Of a DNA stretch of 34,591 nt, positions 8,931 through 34,591 are shown one piece after another. Both the position numbers and the translations under genes were made by a program. This stretch comes from a virus (taxonomy: Duplodnaviria > Caudoviricetes). The stretch covers positions 1 through 34,591 of the IMG/VR virus record IMGVR_UViG_3300032277_000037; one strand, 5' to 3'. Numbering within the stretch: position 1 is the stretch's first letter; every line of letters begins with the position of its first letter. A model generated the notes under the pieces. That model was not told the DNA's origin. It made no database searches and saw only the letters and a list, made by a program, of their open reading frames with translations.

Positions 8931-9128
8931 ATGGCAAAAACCGTCTTTGACGTGCTTACAAATAACATCGACGAGCAAATCTCGTCTGCACAGCGTTTTC
9001 TATCCGGGGGGTCTCCTAAAGACTACGCCGAGTATAGGGAAGTTGTTGGCTTAATTCGGGGTCTCGAAGCCAGCAAATCTTACATCGAAGACCTCTCGCG
9101 CAACTATATGGATGACAACGATGACTAA
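8931..9128 (+). CDS. Small helical protein, 65 aa
   Basis: GAGG SD; fills the gap between portal and GroES; helical hairpin YAEYREVVGLIRGL. Confidence 0.75.
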   Translation: MAKTVFDVLTNNIDEQISSAQRFLSGGSPKDYAEYREVVGLIRGLEASKSYIEDLSRNYMDDNDD

Positions 9129-9498
9129 AGCAGCAGTTAAAATCAACGAAGAACAAGAGTTTGAACAACAACTCCCTAAACCAGTAGGCTACCGCCTGCT
9201 CATCGCTTTGCCGCAGGTCGCGGACACTTATGAGGGGACAAGTATCCTCAAAACCGACTCTGAACGTGGCAGAGACCACATCATGTCTATCATTGGTTTG
9301 GTCGTGGATATGGGTAATGATGCCTATGGGGATGAAGCACGGTTCCCTGATGGCCCTTGGTGTAAACAAGGTGATTATGTGATGTTCCGCATGAACTCAG
9401 GCACTCGGTTTACTATTGGGGGTACTGAGTATCGTTTGATGAATGACGATTCGATTGAGGCAGTCGTGGCTGATCCTCGGGGTATCACACGCGCATAG
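9121..9498 (+). CDS. groES: GroES/Cpn10-like co-chaperonin
   Basis: LPKPVGYRLLI, GLVVDMG, KQGDYVMF and EYRLMNDDSIEAVV follow the Cpn10 strand pattern; start 9112 or 9121. Confidence 0.85.
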   Translation: MTKAAVKINEEQEFEQQLPKPVGYRLLIALPQVADTYEGTSILKTDSERGRDHIMSIIGLVVDMGNDAYGDEARFPDGPWCKQGDYVMFRMNSGTRFTIGGTEYRLMNDDSIEAVVADPRGITRA

Positions 9499-13770: not shown

Positions 13771-13896
13771 ATGGCTATTAGTCGTACGCAGATGAAGAAA
13801 CAAATCCAATCGCCTCCTTCTAAGCTATCGCAGCAGCGAAAAAAGGCGGCAGCGAAAAAACGAAAAAAGGAACTTAATGCCTTATCTAACAAGTAG
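13771..13896 (+). CDS. 41-aa basic peptide MAISRTQMKKQIQSPPSKLSQQRKKAAAKKRKKELNALSNK
   Basis: Hand translated. Starts on the base after the previous stop and fills the gap; N-terminus resembles the MCP N-terminus. Confidence 0.65.
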   Translation: MAISRTQMKKQIQSPPSKLSQQRKKAAAKKRKKELNALSNK

Positions 13897-14566
13897 TATT
13901 CCGTATTTCAAAGCATGGGTGCGGAGGGAGTATACGAAAAATTTAGAAGGTTATCACGGGGAGTTTTTACACGCCATGGTCGTCGCCGTAACTACAATGC
14001 CTAATCGGACGTTGAGCTTCCAAGTGATATTCACTGGGTGCGAGTCTGATGACACAGATGAACCTAATGTTCATGGTGGGGCCATGTGGGCACGTCTACC
14101 GCTTACGGCGCTTGTTGCCGATACTCCGCTTGAAGAATGGCCTACAGAGCTTCCAGCCTATCTAGCGCAGCCTTGGGACTGCATGTCTCATACTCACAGT
14201 GTGTATAAGATAGAACGCGCGTCTCCTGCGCCGTGGATAGCTAAAGTAGATGGTGAGTTTTACCCCGCCAAGTATTATTTTACCGTAGATTACACTGATA
14301 ATGAAGTGGCTGACGACCCAGCGCAGCATAAGCAAAGCCACGTGCTTGAACTGCTAGATGCTGGAGAGTATACAGGTAACATAGTAGCACTACCAAATAA
14401 CCGGGTTCGCGTTACGCACCCTGCGTGGTTTGAAACAGGCCAAGGTGCCCCAGACTTCAAGCCAAACCAACATTCGTACGGTTCTAAAGAAGACGTAGAT
14501 TACGTCTGGGATACAGACCGCGTATTTAACAACCTATATAAGGATGCCAACAATGATGAGACCTAG
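13877..14566 (+). CDS. Conserved phage protein of unknown function, 229 aa
   Basis: AAGGA SD; globular and aromatic-rich (GGAMWARLP, QPWDC, HKQSHV, ALPNNRVR). Confidence 0.8.
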   Translation: MPYLTSSIPYFKAWVRREYTKNLEGYHGEFLHAMVVAVTTMPNRTLSFQVIFTGCESDDTDEPNVHGGAMWARLPLTALVADTPLEEWPTELPAYLAQPWDCMSHTHSVYKIERASPAPWIAKVDGEFYPAKYYFTVDYTDNEVADDPAQHKQSHVLELLDAGEYTGNIVALPNNRVRVTHPAWFETGQGAPDFKPNQHSYGSKEDVDYVWDTDRVFNNLYKDANNDET

Positions 14567-23777: not shown

Positions 23778-24556
23778 TGTCTCTTGCAGCAACCCTTTTT
23801 AATTCAAACACTACATTTGGGCCGGGGATAGAGGTCTTAGGTTTTATAGCTGAGTCTGGAAGTAGTAGTGCTAATATCACAGAGTCCTTTACTAATGGGT
23901 CACTGCCAAGGACTCTACAGGAAAACGATCTTGCAGTTGCTATAATGGTTAATACCGATCTCACAGCAAACGCTGGAGAATCGGACATGGTCGTAGAAAG
24001 TTCTTCTGGTGCAGGTGACTATACAGGCTCGACTTATGCGAGTTCTGAGAATACTGCGACTACAGATCGGTGTCAGGTTAAGATATTTTACAAGTTTATG
24101 GGGTCAACACCCGACACTCAGGTGTATGTCCCTCTTGTTTATAACGGCGACAATGACGGGCATAACAGTGTTATTGTGTACTTTCTAAGGAACGTCGACA
24201 CATCGACTCCTTTTGATGTCACAACTACTACTGCCACTGCAAACAACGTAGGTACGATAACTGCGCCGTCTTTGACGATATCCACTCAAGGCTCGTTGGT
24301 TATTCAAACAGGAAACGCGGGGGGCAACAATATGGAAGATTTGTCTATGGATAACTTTGGCACATCTACAAGCGTCCCCGTTGGTTTTTACACGCAACTT
24401 AGTGATAGTGGTAATGAAGCCTTATCAAGTATAGCTGTTGTAAACTACGATAAGTCTGGCACCCCTGCCCTCCCTGTTTTCCGTGAAGCCACCACCACTG
24501 GTGCGCTCGTTTCGATGTCGATGGCCCTACGCCCTGCAAATCCGCCGATTTACTAA
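23777..24556 (+). CDS. Beta-sandwich putative receptor-binding protein, 259 aa
   Basis: TAATG overlap; LQENDLAVA...KIFYKFMGSTPDT resembles the N-domain of the 555-aa protein (VSAGDLLVA...IIAKIADG). Confidence 0.7.
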   Translation: MSLAATLFNSNTTFGPGIEVLGFIAESGSSSANITESFTNGSLPRTLQENDLAVAIMVNTDLTANAGESDMVVESSSGAGDYTGSTYASSENTATTDRCQVKIFYKFMGSTPDTQVYVPLVYNGDNDGHNSVIVYFLRNVDTSTPFDVTTTTATANNVGTITAPSLTISTQGSLVIQTGNAGGNNMEDLSMDNFGTSTSVPVGFYTQLSDSGNEALSSIAVVNYDKSGTPALPVFREATTTGALVSMSMALRPANPPIY

Positions 24557-24597: not shown

Positions 24598-26814
24598 ATG
24601 CCACTATCAAAGCTACAGTTTAAGCCCGGCGTGAACAGGGAAATGACCTCGTATGCAAATGAAGGCGGGTGGTTTGACTGTGACATGGTGCGCTTCCGCG
24701 AGGGTATGCCTGAAAAGATTGGTGGCTGGACGAAGGTGGGTTCCAATTCGTTTCTTGGCTCGTGCCGTGCCTTGCATTCTTGGAGAACGATTAACCTGAA
24801 CAACTATCTCGGTGTTGGGACTAACATAAAGTACTACATCGAAGAGGGAGAGGGCTACTCAGATATAACACCCCTCCGTGCGGTTACTCCTTTGGACCGT
24901 AACATCTCTGTGTCTATATACGGCGCGTCTGCGACGGGTGAAGTGGGAGAAGTCTCCGCTCCTATGGAAAATGTTTCCATAACTTTGACCGGGGTTACGG
25001 CGTTTAGCCAAATCAATTATGTCGATGCGCAGAGCGAAGGTGGGGATATTGTTTACCTTACAGGTGTTTCGGCTTCTGGAGAAGTTGGGGACGGAACTTT
25101 TATTAATACGCTGCCCGTAGAAGTTAATGGTTTGGAAGCAACGGGCGATGTGGGATCAGTAAATGTTGTTACGACAACAGTAGATTTTGACAGTGAGATT
25201 TTGTTTTCTGCGACGGATGGTTCCTCCACAGTTTCTGTGAACGACATAAATCACGGCGCGGTAACAGGGGACTTTGTAACCTTTACAGACGCCATCGGTT
25301 TGGGCGGAAACATAACCGCTGAAATCCTGAATCAAGAGTATCAAGTCGCTTTAGTTGTGGATGAGGACAACTACACGATTGTCGCCAGAACGGTGGCTAG
25401 TGTGAACTCCATAACGATCGACGGGACGTATACGCCTACTCCTGTTGTAGCCAATGCGTCAGACACGGGAGAAGGTGGCGGGTCTACTATTGGGGCGTAT
25501 CAAATCAACGTGGGCGTTGATACTAGCATTTCAGGAAACGGTTGGGGCGCGGGAACGTGGGGCCGAGGAACGTGGGGCTCTGCTGCGGAAATCAGTACAG
25601 AATCGGATACTCTTCGTATTTGGTCGCATGATAACTTTGGTGAAGACTTAATCTTTAACGTGTCCAACGGCCCAGTGTATTATTGGGATGCGTCTGGAAC
25701 CAACCCGAAAACAAAACGTGGCGTGCTTTTGACTAGCTTAACAGGAGCAAGCAACGCACCTACAGTAGCTACTCAAATTATGGTGTCCGACCGAGACCGT
25801 CACGTTATCGCGTTTGGCGCTAATCCTTTAGGTAGTTCAACGCAAGACCCGCTTCTTATACGATTTTCTTCTCAAGAAAATGCAACGGAGTGGACTCCTA
25901 CCCCTACAAACACCGCTGGCGACCTAAGAGTAGGTTTAGGCTCTAAGATTGTATGTGCGGTCGAAACCCGGCAACAGACATTGGTGTTCACGGATGCTTC
26001 CGTGCACGGGATGCAGTTTCTAGGTCCACCTTCGACGTTCGGGCTTAATCTTTTATCGGACAACATTTCTATCATTGGGATTAATGCGGCGGCGAGTGCG
26101 CAAGACCGCGTGTTCTGGATGGGTCGCGATGAGTTCTATATGTTTGACGGAACGGTGCGAAAACTACCTTGTACGGTTAAAGATTACGTCTTTAGCGATT
26201 TTAACGAGTCTCAGGCTGATAAGGTGTATTGTTCTACCAATACTTCTTTTAACGAGATTTGGTGGTTTTACCCCTCAAGCTCCAGCGCAAATGTAGATCG
26301 TTATGTTGTCTACAACTATGTTTTAAATTTGTGGACTTACGGAACATTGGCTCGAACCGCTTGGACTGATGTTGGGATCATGGAGAACCCCATTGCTGCA
26401 GGAGCGGATGGGTACTTGTATTACCATGAAGACGGCTTTGATGATGGTAGCACTACTCCAGCTAGTGCATTGACTGCGTATATAGAATCTTCTCAATTAG
26501 ATATAGGTGAGGGCAACAATTTTAGTTTCATACGTCGGTTACTGCCGGACATTACTTTTAGAAACAGCACCGCTATTAGTCCTTTGGTCATATTTACGTT
26601 AAAGGCGCGAAACTTTCCCGGTGGGCCATATTTACAAACAGAGGATAGTTCGGTTGTTAAGACCGCGTCTGTTCCTGTTGAACAGTTTACTCAGCAGAAC
26701 TTCGTTCGGCTTAGGGGCCGGTCCATAGCTTTGCGCGTTGAGTCAGACACAACTGGAGTGGGTTGGAGACTTGGAACGCCGAGGATTGATATTAGACCAG
26801 ATGGGAGGCGTTAA
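24598..26814 (+). CDS. Tail nozzle/DNA stabilisation protein (P22 gp10/tail tubular B-like), 738 aa
   Basis: GAGGA SD; size and position; propeller-like strands (WSHDNFGEDL, LLIRFSSQE, FNEIWWFYP); C-terminal RLRGR...WRLG...DGRR. Confidence 0.8.
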   Translation: MPLSKLQFKPGVNREMTSYANEGGWFDCDMVRFREGMPEKIGGWTKVGSNSFLGSCRALHSWRTINLNNYLGVGTNIKYYIEEGEGYSDITPLRAVTPLDRNISVSIYGASATGEVGEVSAPMENVSITLTGVTAFSQINYVDAQSEGGDIVYLTGVSASGEVGDGTFINTLPVEVNGLEATGDVGSVNVVTTTVDFDSEILFSATDGSSTVSVNDINHGAVTGDFVTFTDAIGLGGNITAEILNQEYQVALVVDEDNYTIVARTVASVNSITIDGTYTPTPVVANASDTGEGGGSTIGAYQINVGVDTSISGNGWGAGTWGRGTWGSAAEISTESDTLRIWSHDNFGEDLIFNVSNGPVYYWDASGTNPKTKRGVLLTSLTGASNAPTVATQIMVSDRDRHVIAFGANPLGSSTQDPLLIRFSSQENATEWTPTPTNTAGDLRVGLGSKIVCAVETRQQTLVFTDASVHGMQFLGPPSTFGLNLLSDNISIIGINAAASAQDRVFWMGRDEFYMFDGTVRKLPCTVKDYVFSDFNESQADKVYCSTNTSFNEIWWFYPSSSSANVDRYVVYNYVLNLWTYGTLARTAWTDVGIMENPIAAGADGYLYYHEDGFDDGSTTPASALTAYIESSQLDIGEGNNFSFIRRLLPDITFRNSTAISPLVIFTLKARNFPGGPYLQTEDSSVVKTASVPVEQFTQQNFVRLRGRSIALRVESDTTGVGWRLGTPRIDIRPDGRR

Positions 26815-27113
26815 TGGCAGATCGTTTAGTCCCAGTACCGTTTTTCCCGCTTCCACCGCAGGAGTATAATCAACAATACTTTGCAGAAGTAGTTCGGGCG
26901 ATATCGTTTTACTTTGAGCAGAATGCAAACCCCGGCGAGGGTCGAAATACTTTTAGCGTATTTACTAACTTACAGACAAACGATGTAGGTCTGGAGCCGG
27001 GGGCTATCTTTAACTATGGTGGCTATGTTAAGATCACTCAACTAAACTCGACACACCCTATTGGCACTAGCGCTTTGGGACAGGTAGGCGCAGTGGGGGT
27101 GGCAACAACATGA
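26814..27113 (+). CDS. Tail-associated protein, 99 aa
   Basis: TAATG overlap; PLPPQEY helix; C-terminal GTSALGQVGAV repeat-like motif. Confidence 0.7.
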   Translation: MADRLVPVPFFPLPPQEYNQQYFAEVVRAISFYFEQNANPGEGRNTFSVFTNLQTNDVGLEPGAIFNYGGYVKITQLNSTHPIGTSALGQVGAVGVATT

Positions 27114-27349
27114 GCGAAATAGACCTTACAATTTGGAATTTAATTCTTACAGGCGCGCTAGGGCTTGTGACATGGTTTGCACGGACGGTATGGGCTGAGC
27201 AGCAGCGCCTTTCCATACTGTTGAACCGCACCCGTGAAGAAATGGCGAAGGAATACGTTACTAAGAGCGACAGTTCTGAAGTGCTCTCTCAAATTATGAA
27301 CAAGTTTGACCGCCTAGAAGAAAAAATAGATCGACTTATGGAGAGGTAG
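27110..27349 (+). CDS. Membrane protein (one TM plus coiled coil), lysis-cassette associated, 79 aa
   Basis: IWNLILTGALGLVTWF TM followed by heptads (FDRLEEKIDRL); ATGA overlap. Confidence 0.75.
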   Translation: MSEIDLTIWNLILTGALGLVTWFARTVWAEQQRLSILLNRTREEMAKEYVTKSDSSEVLSQIMNKFDRLEEKIDRLMER

Positions 27350-27350
27350 G

Positions 27351-27524
27351 ATGTTGTGCGTTCTTGTTTTTGTGTCTTTCGGACATGCTTGGGCGCGAGG
27401 CGGCAGCCAGCTGTTTCAATACTGTTACTACGACTGTGGCACCGCAACCAACGGCTTATGGTACGACAGGGTCTTTCGCGTTAACTATCTCTACGTTTGT
27501 CCCGCGAGGTTTGTCGAAACATGA
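27351..27524 (+). CDS. 57-aa Cys/aromatic-rich peptide MLCVLVFVSFGHAWARGGSQLFQYCYYDCGTATNGLWYDRVFRVNYLYVCPARFVET
   Basis: Hand translated. GAGG SD; starts 1 nt after the previous stop; ATGA overlap with the next gene; 4 Cys. Confidence 0.7.
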   Translation: MLCVLVFVSFGHAWARGGSQLFQYCYYDCGTATNGLWYDRVFRVNYLYVCPARFVET

Positions 27525-27988
27525 TTGATCCTATCTCAGCCCTTTCAATTGCAGCCTCCGCTGTATCTAGCGCCAAGACTTTACTAGCTGCTGGCCGGGA
27601 TGCTTCAGGCGCATTAAGTAAATTTGCTGGTGCGGTGAGTGACGTAAATTACGCCGCTGAGAAGGCGAAGAACCCAAGCATCTTTGCATCACTGACTGGC
27701 TCTGCTGAACAAGCAGCTATTGAGGCCTTTTCTGCGCAAAAGCGTATACAGGCTATGCGTAAGGAAATTGAAACAATCATTCAGTTTCAATACGGGCCAA
27801 CTGGCTTAAAAGAATACAAGGACACACTTCGCAAGGTCCGGGAGCAACGCAAGAAAACCGAGTACCGCAAGGCTGAGATCAAGGAGGCTTTGATAATGTG
27901 GGTTGTAGGTGGTATTATCGTGATGGCTGGCATTGCTGGCCTTGCAGTAGTTTTGTATTTCTTGGGTAAGCAGCAGGGGAAGTGGTAA
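27521..27988 (+). CDS. Helical protein with C-terminal TM segment, 155 aa
   Basis: Start moved to ATG 27521 (MIDPISALSIA); TM ALIMWVVGGIIVMAGIAGLAVVLYFL. Confidence 0.8.
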   Translation: MIDPISALSIAASAVSSAKTLLAAGRDASGALSKFAGAVSDVNYAAEKAKNPSIFASLTGSAEQAAIEAFSAQKRIQAMRKEIETIIQFQYGPTGLKEYKDTLRKVREQRKKTEYRKAEIKEALIMWVVGGIIVMAGIAGLAVVLYFLGKQQGKW

Positions 27989-28233
27989 TGGCACACACAA
28001 TACTGGATGATTGGAAGATCCTACCACGTTTGATGATGTTGGTTACGACGATCATGTACATACGTTGCTTAGAGTGGGCGATGTCGCAACCGGACTTGTC
28101 TGTTAGTCAGGCTGGACTGATTTCAGTTGTAACAGGGGCTTTCACGGGAGCCTTCGGCATTTGGATGGGCAAAGAGTCCACGACCACGGTGACTCCAAAC
28201 AAGATTGTTCACAAAGAGAGCTATGACAAATGA
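27988..28233 (+). CDS. Two-TM holin-like protein, 81 aa
   Basis: TAATG overlap; two hydrophobic helices (ILPRLMMLVTTIMY; AGLISVVTGAFTGAFGIWM). Confidence 0.7.
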   Translation: MAHTILDDWKILPRLMMLVTTIMYIRCLEWAMSQPDLSVSQAGLISVVTGAFTGAFGIWMGKESTTTVTPNKIVHKESYDK

Positions 28234-28691
28234 TTACATTACTTGGAAGTTTGCTTGGTTTTGGTACTTCTTTTCTGCCGGAGGTTCTTAATTTCTTTCG
28301 AGCGGGTCAGGAGCACAAGCACAGTCTTGAGCGCATGCAGCTAGAGATGGACATGATGGCTCGGCGCAATGAGTTGAAGCTGGACATTTTGGACAAGCAG
28401 GCTGAGATCAAAGAGACGGAGGGGTTGTATAAACATGATAGCATGGATGCTGGAGGTTTTATCAACGCATTACGAGGTAGCGTCCGGCCTGTCATCACTT
28501 ATGTTTTTTTCGGCCTTTTCGTTGCCATCAAGGTGACGGCTATAATCGCGCTGATGGGTCAAGGGAACGATCTTGGAAGGTCTCTTTCTTTGATTTGGGA
28601 TGATGCTACATCTGGTTTGTTTGCTGCCATAATATCGTTTTGGTTCGGTGGCCGCGCTGTATCAAAGTACATGAAAGGTGGTATGAAATGA
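28230..28691 (+). CDS. Holin, GTA 3TM-holin-like, 153 aa
   Basis: RGSVRPVITY and IISFWFGGR signatures; directly upstream of the endolysin. Confidence 0.8.
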   Translation: MITLLGSLLGFGTSFLPEVLNFFRAGQEHKHSLERMQLEMDMMARRNELKLDILDKQAEIKETEGLYKHDSMDAGGFINALRGSVRPVITYVFFGLFVAIKVTAIIALMGQGNDLGRSLSLIWDDATSGLFAAIISFWFGGRAVSKYMKGGMK

Positions 28692-29140
28692 CATACAAAC
28701 TGGGAAACCGTAGTAACGAACGCCTTGAGGGGGTTGACCCCTCGTTGCAAACAGTTGTCCGCATGGCTATTGGGATTAGTGAGCAAGACTTTAGTGTGAT
28801 CTGCGGACTAAGAACCCGCAAGGAGCAGGAAGCCTTGGTCGCCAAAGGTGCTTCGCAGACCATGAAGAGTAAACATCTGGGCGGCTATGCCGTTGATTTA
28901 ATGGCATATATTGACGGGGGCAGGTGGGAACTGAATCTTTACGATGAGATTGCAGACGCCATGAAAGCTGCCGCTAAGGACTGCGGTGTTAAGATTCGTT
29001 GGGGTGCGGCTTGGCACATAGATGACTTTGGGGCCTATGAAGGCACGGCGGAAGAGGCTATGAATGAGTATGTAGATTTACGCCGTTCACAGGGCCGTCG
29101 TCCATTTATAGACGCACCTCACTTTGAGATCATGGAGTAG
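28688..29140 (+). CDS. Endolysin, peptidase M15 (L-Ala-D-Glu peptidase-like), 150 aa
   Basis: Start ATG 28688 (ATGA overlap); GLRTxxEQ, SKHLGGYAVD (SxHxxGxAxD zinc motif), IRWG and DAPHFE. Confidence 0.92.
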   Translation: MTYKLGNRSNERLEGVDPSLQTVVRMAIGISEQDFSVICGLRTRKEQEALVAKGASQTMKSKHLGGYAVDLMAYIDGGRWELNLYDEIADAMKAAAKDCGVKIRWGAAWHIDDFGAYEGTAEEAMNEYVDLRRSQGRRPFIDAPHFEIME

Positions 29141-29158: not shown

Positions 29159-29440
29159 ATGGAGTTTTTAGATGTATTTAACGCAGCAGCCCAAAATGCT
29201 GTATACCGCGCGGACGATATAAAAGATGCAACAAACTATGACCAAGAGCCAGTAGACCTTGGGATAGACAGCTTAGATATGATTATGGTGGTCGCAATTT
29301 TGTCTGACGCGTATGGCATACCAGATGACCTAGAGTTCGACAATGTGAACAAGTTCACTGTCGGCACGGTACGAGATTTTGTTGATGAGCATAAAACTCA
29401 AGAACCAGAATCCCTAGAAGAAGTTAGGGAGGCTGCGTGA
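29159..29440 (+). CDS. Acyl carrier protein, 93 aa
   Basis: DLGIDSLD phosphopantetheine attachment motif (Ser38), helix II, YGIP, TVGTVRDFV; very acidic; strong GGAGG SD. Confidence 0.88.
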   Translation: MEFLDVFNAAAQNAVYRADDIKDATNYDQEPVDLGIDSLDMIMVVAILSDAYGIPDDLEFDNVNKFTVGTVRDFVDEHKTQEPESLEEVREAA

Positions 29441-29913
29441 TGGTTACCGTCGTCGATAGCAAACAGACTCCCCTACCGGCCCCTGAGATAATTATGACCG
29501 CCGCGTCGGAGCTGAATAACACAGATCAACCCGTGACGAAAGTTATCACCGCGCTCGCGGGGGAGTTGTCACTGCCTAACACTGACCAAGTGCAGATGGG
29601 CAATACGGTGTTTATAGGGCACCGGGGCAAAGGCAAGTACAAGAACGTGATGGAGGGCCGTGCACTTAACTTAGACACCGCGCAGAACTTTGTTCGCAAC
29701 GGTTTGAAATACCTAGCCTATCTACAGAAAAAGAAGGTTGAGCTATACCGCACAGACTTCGACGCACAGGAGTATTTGTCAGCGTTTCAGTTTTGGTATA
29801 ATAAAACAAAAGATACTGACACAGAAGTAGATGTGGTACAGTTAAATACCGGTGGCTACCGTGCGTTCATCAAAATTGGGAAAGACTCTCTAGAAGAGTT
29901 CTGGAGGCTGTAA
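29437..29913 (+). CDS. Hypothetical protein, possible GNAT-fold acyltransferase, 157-158 aa
   Basis: Overlaps the ACP stop (GTGATG). The helix/strand order matches GNAT topology by eye; no canonical CoA motif A. The CDS is secure, the function is inferred. Confidence 0.55.
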   Translation: MMVTVVDSKQTPLPAPEIIMTAASELNNTDQPVTKVITALAGELSLPNTDQVQMGNTVFIGHRGKGKYKNVMEGRALNLDTAQNFVRNGLKYLAYLQKKKVELYRTDFDAQEYLSAFQFWYNKTKDTDTEVDVVQLNTGGYRAFIKIGKDSLEEFWRL

Positions 29914-32900
29914 TGCCAGTATTAGTACCCATTCTTATAGGGGGCGGCGCGGCGGCAGTTGCTGTAACCGCTGGCGTCTCGGTTGGCACTGCTATCATCA
30001 TTGGTGGCGGCGCAGCTATACTTGCACACGAAACCGGTGCGGCGGATTGGGTATACGACGAGATCATAAAGCCTGTTGGGGACCTTGTCGTTGACGTTTT
30101 CGAGTCTGAACTAGGACAAGCGGTACTGAAAATAGCCGCAGTAGCTACTGGAAATGCGTGGGCCGTGCCTTTGATTGAAGGGGCAGGCACATTAGCTCAA
30201 GGTGGGGACCTCGGCGACGCGCTCAAAGCCGCGGCTATCTCTTATGTAGCACAAGGTGTAGGCGATGTAGTTGGTGAGGTCGCAGGAGACGTCGTGCTTG
30301 ACGCCACTGGTAACGCCTTCGCTGCTACTGTTATCGGTACAGGTTCTGGGGCTGCAGCGAAAGCTATTGTGTATGGGCAAGACCCTGTACAAGCATTTGT
30401 AACTGGTGGGATCGGCGCGGCTCTCCCCGCGCTGAATGGGTACATCGACGAGCAAACCGGTGGAGCGTTTGCTGAACTGCCAGATGTCGCGAGAAACGTA
30501 CTTACCAGCACTATGGTCCGTGCTTTGTCTGGGCAAGATATTACGCCAGAGGCTATCCTAAACGCTGCGCTGAGCGCGGAATCAGTTACCAACGCCCTAA
30601 AAGGGTTTGTTGGAGACGTCACTGGATATACTGACGGGCAGATTGCGGCGATTACTTCGGCTGTGCAGCGCACCGCTTCGGCTGCGTTTGGTGGTGGGGA
30701 TATTGATGCGGCCCTTGCGAGCAGTTTAAACAATTACGCCAATAGTGAATTTAAAGAGTGGTTTAATACCACAGCTGCAGGTGTTGCGGTCACTGAGACA
30801 ATGGACAAACTCACTGGGGATTACCAGCGAGTTGAAGAGCAGGCACGTACTCTAGAGGAAAAAGTAAAGGCACACGACGGCGCAGTCGCACGGTATAATA
30901 CTCTTGCGTCTGGACTCACCGCAACAGGTGAACAGCTAACCGAACTAGAGACCGCGTATGAGCGCGCACTGCAGAACTTCCAAGCTAACCAGTCAGAAGA
31001 AAACGCCATTGCTTTGGAAGAGGCGGTAGCCGCGTATAACGCAGTATCAGAGCCGTTTAACGAGACGTACGAAGACGTCATTGCGGAGATGAATAGCATT
31101 GAGGCGAGCCTACCCGGACTCGAAGCTGCGTACGAAGCAGAGAACGAAAAATATAACGTGTTTCTAGAAGACCTTACTACTAATGTCGAACTTGCGAATG
31201 AAGAACTTAAACCGCTCTACGACGAGTTGGATCAGTCCTTTGTTAAGTTCATGGACCCCAACTTTGACGAAGAAGCATACCGCCGTATTGCAGGTCTAGA
31301 CGCAGATGATGACGCCTACTACCACTGGCTGACCGAAGGTAAAGAGGCGGGGCTACCCACCAACCAAGCAGCATACGACGAAGAATACGACGCACGATTC
31401 CAAGGTGTACTAAAAAACGCCGCGGAGTATCTCGGAGTAGATGTAACAGAACTAAATGACGTACAGCGTCAGGCCCTAATTGATTTGGTGGATGCGAGCG
31501 CAGGTGGGGATATAACCGCACTACGCAATACGGGGTTTGCTGAGATTGCAGAAGACTTTGCGGCTAGTGATGTTGGGTCGCCAGTGCTTAATCTTAGTGC
31601 AATCAACTCTATCAAGAGTGAGTTCGAGACGGGCGCTGATATCGTTATCGACGAAACCATCGCAGACCTGCTTACCCGTGCGGGGATTACAAATTTCTTC
31701 GAAGGCGAATCGCTGATTCAGTCTGACATAGATGCACTAGAAAAAACCTTCGGTGATCTGAGTGCTGGCGAAGCGCAAAGCGATGCGCTCAACGCCTCCC
31801 GAGAAAACGTCACCGACGAAGAAATCGCTAATGGAACTGCGGTTCTCAAGGTCCGGCAAGATGATGGGCTTCTAGAGTGGGGCAAGGTAACTTTTGAGAC
31901 TGCGTATTGGAGCAAGACGCATAACACTTTGGTTAAACGTATTTATGTAGAGGATGAGATAGGGGCAGAAGGAGCCTTCGGTGGGCGCAGAATTGTTACT
32001 GTAAACGCGATAACAGGAGAGCCGGTTACAGACGCACTTGAAATCTTAATCACTATGCCTGTATTAACGACGTACGATGACCTCAAAGATTCCGATCCCG
32101 GACAGTGGGCAGCTATCGCTGCAAGTTTAGACGACACCGCGCAGGCTGCTCTAGCGACACAGGTCGGCCAAGATGTTGTTGATTTTATTAACAAATGGGA
32201 TGAAGCAGGAAAATTCGATACTGCACGAGATTACGGTGGGTTAGTAGCGAAAGCCGGTGGCGAACTGCTCGGCACCATGACTGCATTCGTAGATATTACA
32301 CTTGGGTTTGACCCCAACTCCAACCCGGTGGGGGCGTTTGCGGACGATGTTGTTGAGTTCGGTGCAGGTCTACAAACAGACGAGTGGACAGAGGCGTACG
32401 AGCGCGTAAACGCTAAGCTCGCTGAAGGCGAGGGTTGGGAAAAGCTAGGTAGTATATGGGGCGCGTTCCAAGAAGCGCCGGAGCAGTTTGTAGCAGAGAT
32501 TATTGGTAAAGAGATAATCCAAGAACTACCGTGGCTCATTATTTCAAAGGGCGCTATGACGGGCTCAAAAGAAATATTCCGTGCCATGGGCAAAGAACTG
32601 TCGGATCGAGCGGCACTAAAAGTAGGTATCGGCACATCTGCTAGCTTAGACATCGCCGAATCTTTCGGCGGTGCAGCAGACAGTGCGTACAACGAAGCTC
32701 TAAATACTTATCTCGCTGCAGGCATGTCGCAAGAAGAAGCCGAATCCGCGGCCATGGAGCTGGCACAAAGTGCGGGTATGATTAGTGCTGTAGTTACAAT
32801 GGCTAGCTTCGGCATTGGCGGTAACGATTTCGAAAAAGCCATCTTAGGTAGAGACTCTACAGGTACCACCGCAGAAGCGTTTGACTGGCTAACCGATAAA

Positions 32901-34591
32901 ATTACGACTGGTGCGCAGGTTACTTGGAACGAGGGCGTGCAGGAGGCCATAGAAGAAGGCCTTCCAACCCTATTTGTCGAGACTATCCTCACGCAGGTTG
33001 ACCCTGACCGAGATGTGCTTGGTACTGTTGTACAAAACGCTGCGCTAGGCGCTCTCGCTGGTGCGGGCACTGCGGGGGGTATATACACAGGCTCTACATT
33101 GACAGACCTTCTTATTCGTACAGACCCCCGTGCAAGTAAGATCATTAACGACGCGAAGTCTGGAGGTCCCGACGGTACTGGTGGTATGAGCACTACGGAA
33201 GCCGTAACGGCTTTGACTGATTATCTAGATAGCGTTGTAGAAGGCACTGAGTTTGCAGAAGGCGTCGCATATGAAGACCTGCGTAATAACCTGCTGAGCA
33301 CCGTAGACGACAGCTACAACAGTACCGGACAGGTGCTCAATCAGCTCGCCAAGTTCCCCGGTTTTGCTACGACAGAAGAGGAACTCCTAAACCTGACACT
33401 CAATAGTGCTGGGGAAGACGTAATTACATACGTCAACACCTATGTTGACTCCCGCTATTTGAGCGAGGTGGAAGTTCGTGCGGCGGCAGAGGCACAAGGA
33501 CTAGAACTAAGCGACGAAGAGATATTTGAGCGGGTGGGCCGTGTCGAAGACAAAAACGCTGCCAACGAGTACCTAGTAACACAGTTTGATGGCATGAGTG
33601 TTACGAATGATGAGGTGCGTGAAACGTTTGAATCTGAAGGTTATACAGGTTCTGACGACGATCTTGCACAGTTTGCGGGGCAATTCGACGAAGCGGAACA
33701 ACTTGAACTTGCTAGACTCTTCGCGGACTCCAACGTGTTTAATGAAGATGAGGCCATGCAGGCTCTCCTAGATGCGGGGCTTGAATACGATACCGACTCG
33801 CTCGGTAACTTCCTCGGACAACGTGACGAATCTACGGCGATGGCGGAGCTATTGGCAGAAGCCGAAAGCCTAGCCGCAGAACAAACAGCGCTCGAAGCTG
33901 AAAAAGCCAGACTAGCTGAAGAAGCCAGACTAGCTGAGGAAGCCAGACTAGCTGCAGAAGTTGAAAGACTAGCCGCAGAACAAGCAGCTGCGGAACAAGC
34001 AGCTGCCGAAGCAGCTGCCGAAGCAGAAAGACTAGCTGCGGAACAAGCAACTGAAGAAGCGCAGGCCGCTGCCGCTGCCGAAGCTGAACGCCTAGAAGCA
34101 GAAGCGGAAGCCGCGCGCCAAGCAGCCGCAGACGCACAAGCAGCCGCACAAGCAGCCGCAGACGCACAAGCAGCCGCAGAAGCACAAGCAGCCGCAGAAG
34201 CACAAGCAGCCGCAGAAGCGCAAGCAGCCGCAGAAGCGCAAGCAGCCGCAGACGCACAAGCAGCCGCAGAAGCAGCCGCAGCCGCAGAAGCAGCCGCAGC
34301 CGCAGAAGCAGCCGCAGCCGCAGAAACTGGAATCGACGAGACAGTTGATGAGACAGTTGACGAGACAGTTGATGAGACAGTTGACGAGACCACTGACGTA
34401 GACACCGCCATTAATGAGGCCACTGACGTAGACACCGTCATTAATGAGGCCACTGACGTAGACACCGCCATTAATGAGGCCACTGACGTAGGCACCGTCA
34501 TTAATGAGGCCACTGACGTAGACACCGTCATTAATGAGGCCACTGACGTAGACACCGTCATTAATGAGGCCACTGACGTAGACACCGTCAT
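29913..34591 (+). CDS. Giant acidic protein (>1559 aa), probable internal virion/DNA ejection protein; runs off the window
   Basis: Not in the ORF track (no stop). TAATG overlap; begins MPVLVPILIGGGAAAVAVTAGVSVGTAIIIGGGAAILA. The frame is open in the stretches I translated and is in phase with the terminal repeats. Contains Gly/Ala hydrophobic segments, a coiled coil and an EGVQEAIEEG motif. Confidence 0.88.
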   Translation, partial: MPVLVPILIGGGAAAVAVTAGVSVGTAIIIGGGAAILAHETGAADWVYDEIIKPVGDLVVDVFESELGQAVLKIAAVATGNAWAVPLIEGAGTLAQGGDLGDALKAAAISYVAQGVGDVVGEVAGDVVLDATGNAFAATVIGTGSGAAAKAIVYGQDPVQAFVTGGIGAALPALNGYIDEQTGGAFAELPDVARNVLTSTMVRALSGQDITPEAILNAALSAESVTNALKGFVGDVTGYTDGQIAAITSAVQRTASAAFGGGDIDAALASSLNNYANSEFKEWFNTTAAGVAVTETMDKLTGDYQRVEEQARTLEEKVKAHDGAVARYNTLASGLTATGEQLTELETAYERALQNFQANQSEENAIALEEAVAAYNAVSEPFNETYEDVIAEMNSIEASLPGLEAAYEAENEKYNVFLEDLTTNVELANEELKPLYDELDQSFVKFMDPNFDEEAYRRIAGLDADDDAYYHWLTEGKEAGLPTNQAAYDEEYDARFQGVLKNAAEYLGVDVTELNDVQRQALIDLVDASAGGDITALRNTGFAEIAEDFAASDVGSPVLNLSAINSIKSEFETGADIVIDETIADLLTRAGITNFFEGESLIQSDIDALEKTFGDLSAGEAQSDALNASRENVTDEEIANGTAVLKVRQDDGLLEWGKVTFETAYWSKTHNTLVKRIYVEDEIGAEGAFGGRRIVTVNAITGEPVTDALEILITMPVLTTYDDLKDSDPGQWAAIAASLDDTAQAALATQVGQDVVDFINKWDEAGKFDTARDYGGLVAKAGGELLGTMTAFVDITLGFDPNSNPVGAFADDVVEFGAGLQTDEWTEAYERVNAKLAEGEGWEKLGSIWGAFQEAPEQFVAEIIGKEIIQELPWLIISKGAMTGSKEIFRAMGKELSDRAALKVGIGTSASLDIAESFGGAADSAYNEALNTYLAAGMSQEEAESAAMELAQSAGMISAVVTMASFGIGGNDFEKAILGRDSTGTTAEAFDWLTDKITTGAQVTWNEGVQEAIEEGLPTLFVETILTQVDPDRDVLGTVVQNAALGALAGAGTAGGIYTGSTLTDLLIRTDPRASKIINDAKSGGPDGTGGMSTTEAVTALTDYLDSVVEGTEFAEGVAYEDLRNNLLSTVDDSYNSTGQVLNQLAKFPGFATTEEELLNLTLNSAGEDVITYVNTYVDSRYLSEVEVRAAAEAQGLELSDEEIFERVGRVEDKNAANEYLVTQFDGMSVTNDEVRETFESEGYTGSDDDLAQFAGQFDEAEQLELARLFADSNVFNEDEAMQALLDAGLEYDTDSLGNFLGQRDESTAMAELLAEAESLAAEQTALEAEKARLAEEARLAEEARLAAEVERLAAEQAAAEQAAAEAAAEAERLAAEQATEEAQAAAAAEAERLEAEAEAARQAAADAQAAAQAAADAQAAAEAQAAAEAQAAAEAQAAAEAQAAADAQAAAEAAAAAEAAAAAEAAAAAETGIDETVDETVDETVDETVDETTDVDTAINEATDVDTVINEATDVDTAINEATDVGTVINEATDVDTVINEATDVDTVINEATDVDTV
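33903..34591 (+). repeat. In-frame tandem repeat series in the giant ORF
   Basis: 18-bp EARLAE x3 (33903-33956); 18-bp QAAA(D/E)A and AAAAAE units (34119-34325); 12-bp DETV x5 (34335-34391); 30-bp TDVDT(A/V)INEA x6+ (34392-end). Confidence 0.95.

Follow-up and report, generated by a model that had tools for sequence, protein, structure and literature searches.

Acyl carrier protein genes, often paired with a ketosynthase gene, precede a candidate GNAT-fold acyltransferase gene in the ejection-type operon of tailed phages

Virus record IMGVR_UViG_3300032277_000037, a linear stretch of 34,591 bases that was analysed at its full length and is referred to here as the window, carries in its late arm a gene for an acyl carrier protein (ACP), followed directly by a gene for a 157-residue protein with a predicted GNAT fold and by a gene for a giant protein that is likely to be ejected with the DNA. 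In most relatives that possess both small genes, a ketosynthase (KS) gene lies between them. We found that the window's ACP belongs to a clade of ACPs without a ketosynthase, that ACPs have been swapped between GNAT lineages and that the ACP gene can be removed cleanly while the characteristic GNAT residues are kept; these three findings are new, as is the similar layout around the ACP gene of two cultured Alteromonas phages. The explanation that we tentatively favour, at slightly less than even confidence, is that the GNAT-fold protein acylates an ejection protein during virion assembly using acyl-ACP as the donor, and that the phage ACP would serve as an optional, dedicated donor supply.

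The ACP and its GNAT-fold neighbour

An initial annotation of the window had placed an ACP with a modifiable serine in the late or virion arm, and this was borne out (Table 1). The protein is rich in acidic residues, with 23 Asp or Glu as opposed to 6 Lys or Arg, and D37 and S38 are invariant in 67 sequences. It matches PF00550 with E 6.6e-4 and 20.3 bits, the gathering cut-off being 20.8, and does not reach the cut-off of the host-type AcpP profile TIGR00517 (18.9 versus 70.45 bits). The ACP gene, the middle gene and the giant gene had been described as a chained trio. The three genes are indeed consecutive, but for the middle frame, which opens at GTG 29437 (158 aa), ATG 29440 is the most likely start codon, as close homologues have 157 residues and align from there; the working overlap between the ACP and GNAT genes is therefore TGATG. 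The overlapping stop and start codons carry no special weight, because 9 of the 37 plus-strand junctions in the window share a 1- or 4-base overlap.

Sequence searches of Pfam, PHROGs, NCBIfam and PDB did not name a family for the 157-aa protein, and the ESM Atlas matched it to unnamed clusters only, with low shared-feature counts. An AlphaFold model based on a 66-sequence alignment had a predicted local distance difference test score (pLDDT) of 95 and contained strands at residues 48-53, 56-62, 70-77, 102-107, 129-134 and 140-145 and helices at residues 81-97 and 112-123, matching every element of the GNAT-like order that the initial annotation had named. When the model was compared with PDB entries, the best Foldseek match was to a NAT (E 1.8e-4) and the top matches were almost all GNATs, while VIA aligned RimI (5isv) with Z 10.6 and a root-mean-square deviation of 3.1 over 121 residues, tied among many GNATs. 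Fold matches in BFVD included 'internal virion protein A' (E 5.2e-4, template modelling (TM) score 0.45) and a DUF2824 protein (E 5.6e-3, TM score 0.50), but these TM scores are at the generic GNAT level and no better than for other GNATs. The protein is thus predicted with high confidence to adopt a GNAT fold, as the initial annotation had supposed.

In the model, strand 70-77 and helix 81-97 are linked by only 3 residues, and the R/QxxGxG/A motif, which we take to be GNAT motif A, the coenzyme A (CoA) pyrophosphate loop, is absent from the window's protein, in agreement with the earlier remark that RxxGxG is lacking. On these two grounds, the usual CoA loop is missing. Among 121 relatives, 16 carry the pattern somewhere in the sequence. 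Across 137 distinct homologues, E42, G54, N55 and D79 do not vary and N83, S7, H61 and R74 hardly do; among these, the polar residues E42, N55, D79 and N83 suggest an active site.

The 291 representatives found at E <= 0.001 constitute a separate sequence family. PF11090, the T7 gp13 profile, and PF11039 (DUF2824), which we take to represent P22 gp14, gave no match at E <= 1 in the window, and neither was among the 25/30 Pfam families listed for 121 homologues (one member each). PF02794, the HlyC family, likewise had no match at E <= 1 and none in the general Pfam search, and neither HlyC-family nor gp13-family structures were among the matches listed for the top 50 PDB entries in Foldseek and VIA, which does not speak against either family. 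The proposed relationship to T7 gp13 holds for the genomic slot but not for the sequence profiles, and by profile, membership of the HlyC family was not supported.

Conserved order, selection and exchange of the cassette

Gene order was surveyed from three anchors, namely the best 80 of 242 loci for the GNAT, 55 of 55 for the ketosynthase and the best 80 of 85 for the ACP; all counts refer to loci, many of which are near-identical, and not to independent genomes. Anchored on the GNAT, 49 loci carry ACP, KS and GNAT, with the ketosynthase between the other two, 15 carry ACP and GNAT as in the window and 16 carry the GNAT alone. The predicted linkage of ACP, GNAT and ejection gene is tight, with an ACP in 64 of 80 loci. 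From the ketosynthase, an ACP gene was found upstream in 54 of 55 loci, the remaining one being at a contig end, so that no locus with room upstream had a KS without an ACP; a GNAT gene followed downstream in 49 of 55, and five of the six misses were at a contig end, leaving one true miss. From the ACP, 47 loci continued with KS and GNAT and 17 with the GNAT directly (64 of 80 with a GNAT), 15 were ended by the contig and one was a true miss.

We found 1393 KS homologues, and the catalytic motifs are intact in the sequences scored (Cys in 125/125, HGTGT in 124/125 and GHT in 125/125). At one locus the ketosynthase is in two pieces and the ACP has an aberrant end (L027:266-1650), perhaps due to sequencing error; this locus was excluded from the ACP trees. 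In GenBank record MW202545.1 the order is hub, ACP, 3-oxoacyl-ACP synthase, GNAT homologue and four large genes ending in a transglycosylase. All three states occur in complete genomes: the full set of genes is present in G011 and G012, the ketosynthase is lacking in G007 and G008, and the GNAT-only state is considered below. Absences of ACP and KS rest on profile searches for which G007, G008, G011 and G012 served as positive controls.

No ketosynthase was found in the window, for which CheckV estimated a completeness of 56%. Contigs from three of three DNA runs, belonging to three studies and including one run that is possibly the source sample, span the ACP-GNAT junction without a ketosynthase, and its absence there is therefore not an assembly slip. 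From one RNA run, only short, divergent pieces of the locus were recovered. The initial annotation had also asked after a ketoacyl synthase or phosphopantetheinyl transferase across related phages; the former is present in the 49 loci described above, but a search of 10 phage records, of which 7 have a completeness of 90% or more, gave no match to the latter (PF01648), and the missing 44% of the window's own record could carry further genes. The GTDB genome set contained one locus only, a KS and GNAT pair (L161:5-734) on a 12-kb contig of a Parvibaculum metagenome-assembled genome, which is possibly a host hint or a case of mis-binning.

In phylogenetic trees, 12 of 13 distinct KS-free ACPs (10 of 11 in a smaller set) form one clade that includes the window's, with FastTree support of 92 in the larger and 98 in the smaller set from only 94-97 columns. 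Members of this clade are 44-55% identical to the window's ACP, and all are full length with the DSL motif intact. The ratio of nonsynonymous to synonymous substitution rates (dN/dS) was 0.06-0.14 in four close pairs and 0.28 in one, the values for the window's ACP against its close relatives being 0.11-0.14; two distant pairs, which are near saturation, gave 0.28 and 0.59. These ratios show purifying selection on the ACP clade of the window. The KS-free state is mostly not decay. A pseudogene was considered as a candidate identity of the ACP and ruled out by dN/dS.

We also weighed whether the window's ACP could be a non-functional, decaying remnant of a three-gene cassette that has lost its ketosynthase. 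ACP with KS is the widespread state in the tree, with several losses, and the KS-free ACP that falls outside the clade is that of L074, in which a recent KS deletion has left a 28-aa scar (L074:2198-2284) between ACP and GNAT. Loss of the ACP itself, as seen in L008 and L009, would be the next step on such a path. However, nearly all distinct KS-free ACPs fall into a single deep clade whose members have diverged substantially while remaining full length, intact in their DSL motif and low in dN/dS, and other GNAT lineages have acquired members of the clade. The remnant explanation is largely refuted by this selection and we consider it very improbable.

The GNATs that lie beside the KS-free ACP clade do not share its history, and their grouping as one clade was rejected (approximately unbiased test, p 2.7e-53; 44 GNATs, quick tree). 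Between the window and L013 the GNATs are 79% identical but the ACPs only 32%, whereas between L013 and L047 the GNATs are 46% identical but the ACPs 72%. By these comparisons, GNAT lineages have exchanged ACPs of the KS-free clade. The mismatch in identity, together with the rejection of a single GNAT clade, shows the ACP, or the ACP with its ketosynthase, to be an interchangeable cassette inserted ahead of the GNAT. In the window, the ACP is still against the GNAT despite a lysis block and a different hub upstream.

The downstream protein and its genomic setting

The ejection role of the giant protein is suggested by its position and by its homologues, which directly follow the GNAT. Wherever the contig allows, a homologue is the next gene; the homologues range from 312 to 2577 aa and share the N-terminal region. 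The initial annotation had drawn attention to the great length and the Gly/Ala-rich hydrophobic N-terminus of the window's protein, and both are present (Table 1), but neither is a conserved feature, given this range of sizes and the mostly acidic, valine-rich heads of the relatives. Among GNAT-anchored loci, an uncharged Gly/Ala head was seen in 28 of 75 that could be scored and a charged one in 47 (5 of 80 were unscorable), and the 19 distinct uncharged heads all belong to the window's own GNAT clade. The ketosynthase is missing in 19 of 28 loci with an uncharged head versus 11 of 47 without, an association that represents one clade and one event.

Pfam returned no match for the giant protein, and its one PHROG match, to a virion RNA polymerase, is weak (E 6.5e-5). 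A model of the first 450 residues had a mean pLDDT of 50, with a helical head and residues 1-281 almost all below 50, and showed a confident long helical hairpin at residues 288-447; a fold search with it yielded nothing at E <= 0.001. Where the record cuts off the gene (window 33900-34591), a long Ala/Glu/Gln-rich run is followed by 10-residue Thr/Asp/Val repeats.

In complete relatives, the order is GNAT, giant protein and four further genes, encoding proteins of about 220-260, 275-290, 575-770 and 2300 aa, and in MW202545.1 an SLT protein closes the operon. A run of helical, partly hydrophobic proteins ends the virion operon, as is characteristic of podoviral ejection proteins (PMC8954989). 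In MW202545.1, the 639-aa protein that follows the GNAT (L007:16823-18742) combines the head of the giant protein with the C-terminal domain of the ~220-260-aa protein, for which relatives closer to the window have a gene of its own.

Terminase, portal, capsid, tail and lysis genes are present in the window. Its capsid protein shares 62-64% identity with the capsid proteins of pelagiphages HTVC023P/027P and 56% with those of roseophages CRP-901/902, and by this measure the group is related to HTVC023P-type pelagiphages and to these roseophages. We infer a short-tailed build because of the hub-type gene and the ejection-type operon. The window's hub (738 aa) is of a longer, divergent type, 47-48% identical to the hubs of L001, L002, L004 and L012, in which, unlike in the window, the lysis genes lie upstream of the hub; from this comparison, window 26814-29140 appears to be part of a recombinant late operon. 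Read depth across the same block was far above that of its flanks, which suggests that the lysis block is common to many phages. Elsewhere, the window carries a GroES-like gene (9112-9498, phrog_3188) shortly 3' of the portal gene and a phrog_3704 gene (13877-14566) among the head-tail genes.

Table 1. Features of the late region of the window discussed in the text.
Feature	Coordinates	Strand	Basis and remarks
Tail hub or nozzle-type virion protein	24598..26814	+	phrog_3287, E 8.6e-77; gene at the same position in MW202545.1 annotated 'phage stabilization protein'; upstream landmark of the cassette in relatives
Lysis-type block ending in M15 endolysin	27110..29140	+	phrog_465 endolysin, E 2.3e-49; sits between hub and ACP
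Phage ACP, member of the KS-free clade	29159..29440	+	93 aa; Ser38 in DLGIDSLD (DSL motif)
Protein of predicted GNAT fold, candidate acyltransferase in the T7 gp13 / P22 gp14 slot, without CoA pyrophosphate loop	29440..29913	+	157 aa; AF2 model, Foldseek, VIA, invariant residues
Giant acidic protein, likely first ejection (internal virion) protein and candidate acyl acceptor	29913..34591	+	1559 aa, open at record end
Head segment of the giant protein (aa 1-39), hydrophobic and uncharged	29913..30029	+	Kyte-Doolittle segments 1-25 and 11-39; Gly/Ala-rich

A possible acylation pathway and its rivals

We infer the following chemical steps for the favoured explanation. A host phosphopantetheinyl transferase would prime Ser38, and the carrier would be loaded by the phage ketosynthase in most relatives and by host fatty-acid enzymes in the KS-free clade; where present, the ketosynthase would tailor the chain. 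The GNAT without a CoA loop would then take the chain from acyl-ACP, and relatives that lack an ACP would use the acyl-ACP of the host. The most likely acceptor would be the N-terminal head of the adjacent protein, where an alpha-amine freed by Met removal would be more plausible than an RTX-type internal lysine, and, once attached, the acyl chain would aid the protein that is ejected first in engaging the outer membrane of the host. The nested series, in which the ketosynthase needs the ACP, the ACP sits on the GNAT and the GNAT can stand alone, points to a supply chain for an acyl donor with a host back-up.

As modelled, the GNAT without a CoA loop resembles the RtxC enzymes, which PMC8339906 presents as GNAT folds that lack CoA-binding elements and use acyl-ACP. 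By analogy, CdiC and CdiA of class IV contact-dependent inhibition (CDI) offer a precedent for a lipid that aids outer-membrane engagement, since CdiC's lipid helps CdiA bind the outer membrane of its target (PMC8510554). With both precedents in mind, the window's protein may work like RtxC or CdiC without being one. With HlyC and CdiC it would share a GNAT fold without CoA elements, acyl-ACP as the proposed donor and an adjoining large membrane-targeting protein, as far as those systems are described in the same sources. It differs from HlyC in having no PF02794 match and in its neighbour, since the 1559 aa sequenced contain no RTX nonapeptide repeats (the C-terminus lies beyond the record end) and the first 450 no invariant lysine; the RTX and HlyC specifics of the comparison drawn by the initial annotation were thus not supported. 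Moreover, HlyC uses the acyl-ACP of the cell, whereas the phage system mostly comes with an ACP gene of its own, in many cases accompanied by a ketosynthase gene.

A number of observations on gene content and on the acceptor weigh against this pathway. The ACP is dispensable: it is absent from the 16 GNAT-only loci, and complete genome G001 has a GNAT without ACP or KS. Between L008 and L010, whose GNATs are 96% identical, the difference is a clean deletion of about 240 bases that removes the ACP gene. Compared with L010, L008 (L008:7963-8001) and L009, two contigs, retain a short tail of the deleted gene with a ribosome-binding site. GNAT invariants are kept in 11 of 11 ACP-less sequences and low dN/dS persists without the ACP, GNAT and ACP show no strict co-evolution, and L125 and L213 carry ACP and KS without a GNAT. 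In the last two loci, the pair (L125:2202 onward and L213:6394 onward) is followed by small open reading frames (ORFs) that do not look structural. Finally, a GNAT is usual in the gp13 slot of phages without an ACP match, such as CRP-901, in which gp34 is a canonical GNAT between the hub and virion proteins and the record has no PF00550 match.

These gene-content observations also speak for a different explanation, in which the GNAT is a gp13-type assembly chaperone, either non-catalytic or making a minor modification from a host donor, and the ACP, with or without KS, is an accessory late gene directed at the lipid metabolism of the host, with its slot serving for expression. The small-GNAT slot is shared by T7 gp13 (PF11090), P22 gp14 / DUF2824 (PF11039), CRP-901 gp34 and cobavirus pc40, which PMC6775973 likens to T7 gp13; such a gene also lies between tail nozzle or hub and internal virion proteins in the gene table of PMC4517105. 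The window's GNAT occupies the same position between hub and ejection genes, with the lysis block and the ACP between hub and GNAT. In addition, the ACP can be lost and swapped across GNAT clades, and phage ACPs have been read as metabolic genes (PMC11705849 and PMC8224337). On the other hand, a free accessory unit would not be expected almost always directly before one gene, and the ACP has remained beside the GNAT despite the rearrangement seen in the window; its TIGR00517 score sets it well apart from host AcpP, and the window's GNAT has no CoA loop. The window's family is also separate from gp13-type proteins in sequence, and an ACP of its own, alone or together with a ketosynthase, usually stands before it, an arrangement for which we found no description ahead of gp13-type genes in the open-licence PMC and bioRxiv literature. 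We regard the chaperone explanation as unlikely, although it deserves weight.

With regard to the acceptor, the points against acylation of the giant protein begin with its residues: no lysine in the first 450 positions is invariant (K105 is conserved in 75% and K73 in 60%), and the sequenced 1559 aa contain no cysteine. Residue 2 of the downstream protein is Ser, Gly, Ala, Pro or Thr in 128 of 130 distinct sequences. This is compatible with a freed N-terminal amine and is weak evidence for it, but the bias may reflect kinship and ordinary Met removal, and Pro2 of the window's protein is presumably a poor amine acceptor. The target is also ambiguous, because the ~285-aa protein two genes past the giant is homologous to HTVC023P gp81, which directly follows the 152-aa gp80, and is thus an alternative acceptor. 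HTVC023P gp80 (L158:28727-29185) is an unannotated gene whose product looks GNAT-like by eye and has no Pfam match.

The lack of a conserved acceptor residue would also suit a genuine ACP-fed acyltransferase pathway that yields a small molecule, a lipid or a component of the host envelope, for instance an N-acyl amino acid, a signal or a lipid-A-type target. In bacteria, NodF/NodE/NodA and FeeL/FeeM are dedicated units of ACP, ketosynthase and N-acyltransferase that acylate sugars or amino acids, and relatives that keep the ketosynthase follow the same three-part logic, typical of systems that acylate small molecules. VIA matched the acyl-homoserine lactone synthase TofI with Z 9.0, among many tied GNATs. 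The phage cassette differs from the Nod and Fee units in that it lies in a virion operon and in that the window's form lacks the ketosynthase. Since the GNAT occupies the gp13 slot right next to the ejection genes and persists where ACP and KS have been lost, which fits a virion role, we consider a small-molecule or envelope product quite improbable.

Phage ACPs are known from cultured phages and prophages. PMC11705849 describes gp30 of Alteromonas phage R22Y as an ACP that serves host fatty-acid metabolism, and PMC8224337 reads acpP/fabF/fabG of a roseobacter prophage, which follow host fab-operon order, as metabolic. The phage ACPs reported in this way share the DSL motif with the window's ACP; the difference is their published reading as host fatty-acid support, in which, as far as the accessible text goes, position in the virion operon is not discussed. 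In R22Y, a virion structural gene precedes the ACP gene (23789-24070) and a 167-aa ORF comes after it, ahead of genes of 919, 109, 457, 1008 and 2083 aa, and Alteromonas phage PT11-V19 has the same order; the KS profile found nothing convincing in R22Y. Comparison of the 167-aa ORF with the window's GNAT gave E 0.086 and an hhalign probability of 1.8%, which leaves homology unsupported, and the parallel is therefore one of layout only. In both of these cultured phages, ACP, 167-aa ORF and large late genes stand in a row (L236:23774-38292, PP212876.1; L238:8754-18498, OP751378.1). In the open-licence PMC and bioRxiv main texts, we found neither the cassette nor any lipidation of virions through it described, and phage ACPs appeared only as metabolic genes.

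A broader version of the acylation proposal is speculative, and we lean towards doubting it. Tailed phages might lipidate their DNA-ejection proteins, with the GNAT in the gp13 slot acting as an acyl-ACP-dependent acyltransferase and a swappable ACP, or ACP and ketosynthase, setting the chain and so tuning ejection to the host envelope. The window's lineage would have dropped the ketosynthase, possibly since its new hydrophobic head took over part of the anchor's job, and cultured ACP-bearing Alteromonas phages would use the same chemistry. To date, the gp13-type GNAT gene ahead of podoviral ejection proteins has been described only as a likely morphogenesis factor (PMC6775973, in the text accessible). 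That a phage ACP, and often a ketosynthase, stands directly ahead of the GNAT suggests that this slot holds an acyltransferase, which is a testable idea, and the series of three states, with ACP and KS, with ACP only and with neither, provides built-in natural controls. If acyl transfer is indeed the function, tailed phages would fatty-acylate the proteins that deliver their genomes, and some of the phage ACP and FabF genes now counted as auxiliary metabolic genes would be morphogenesis genes.

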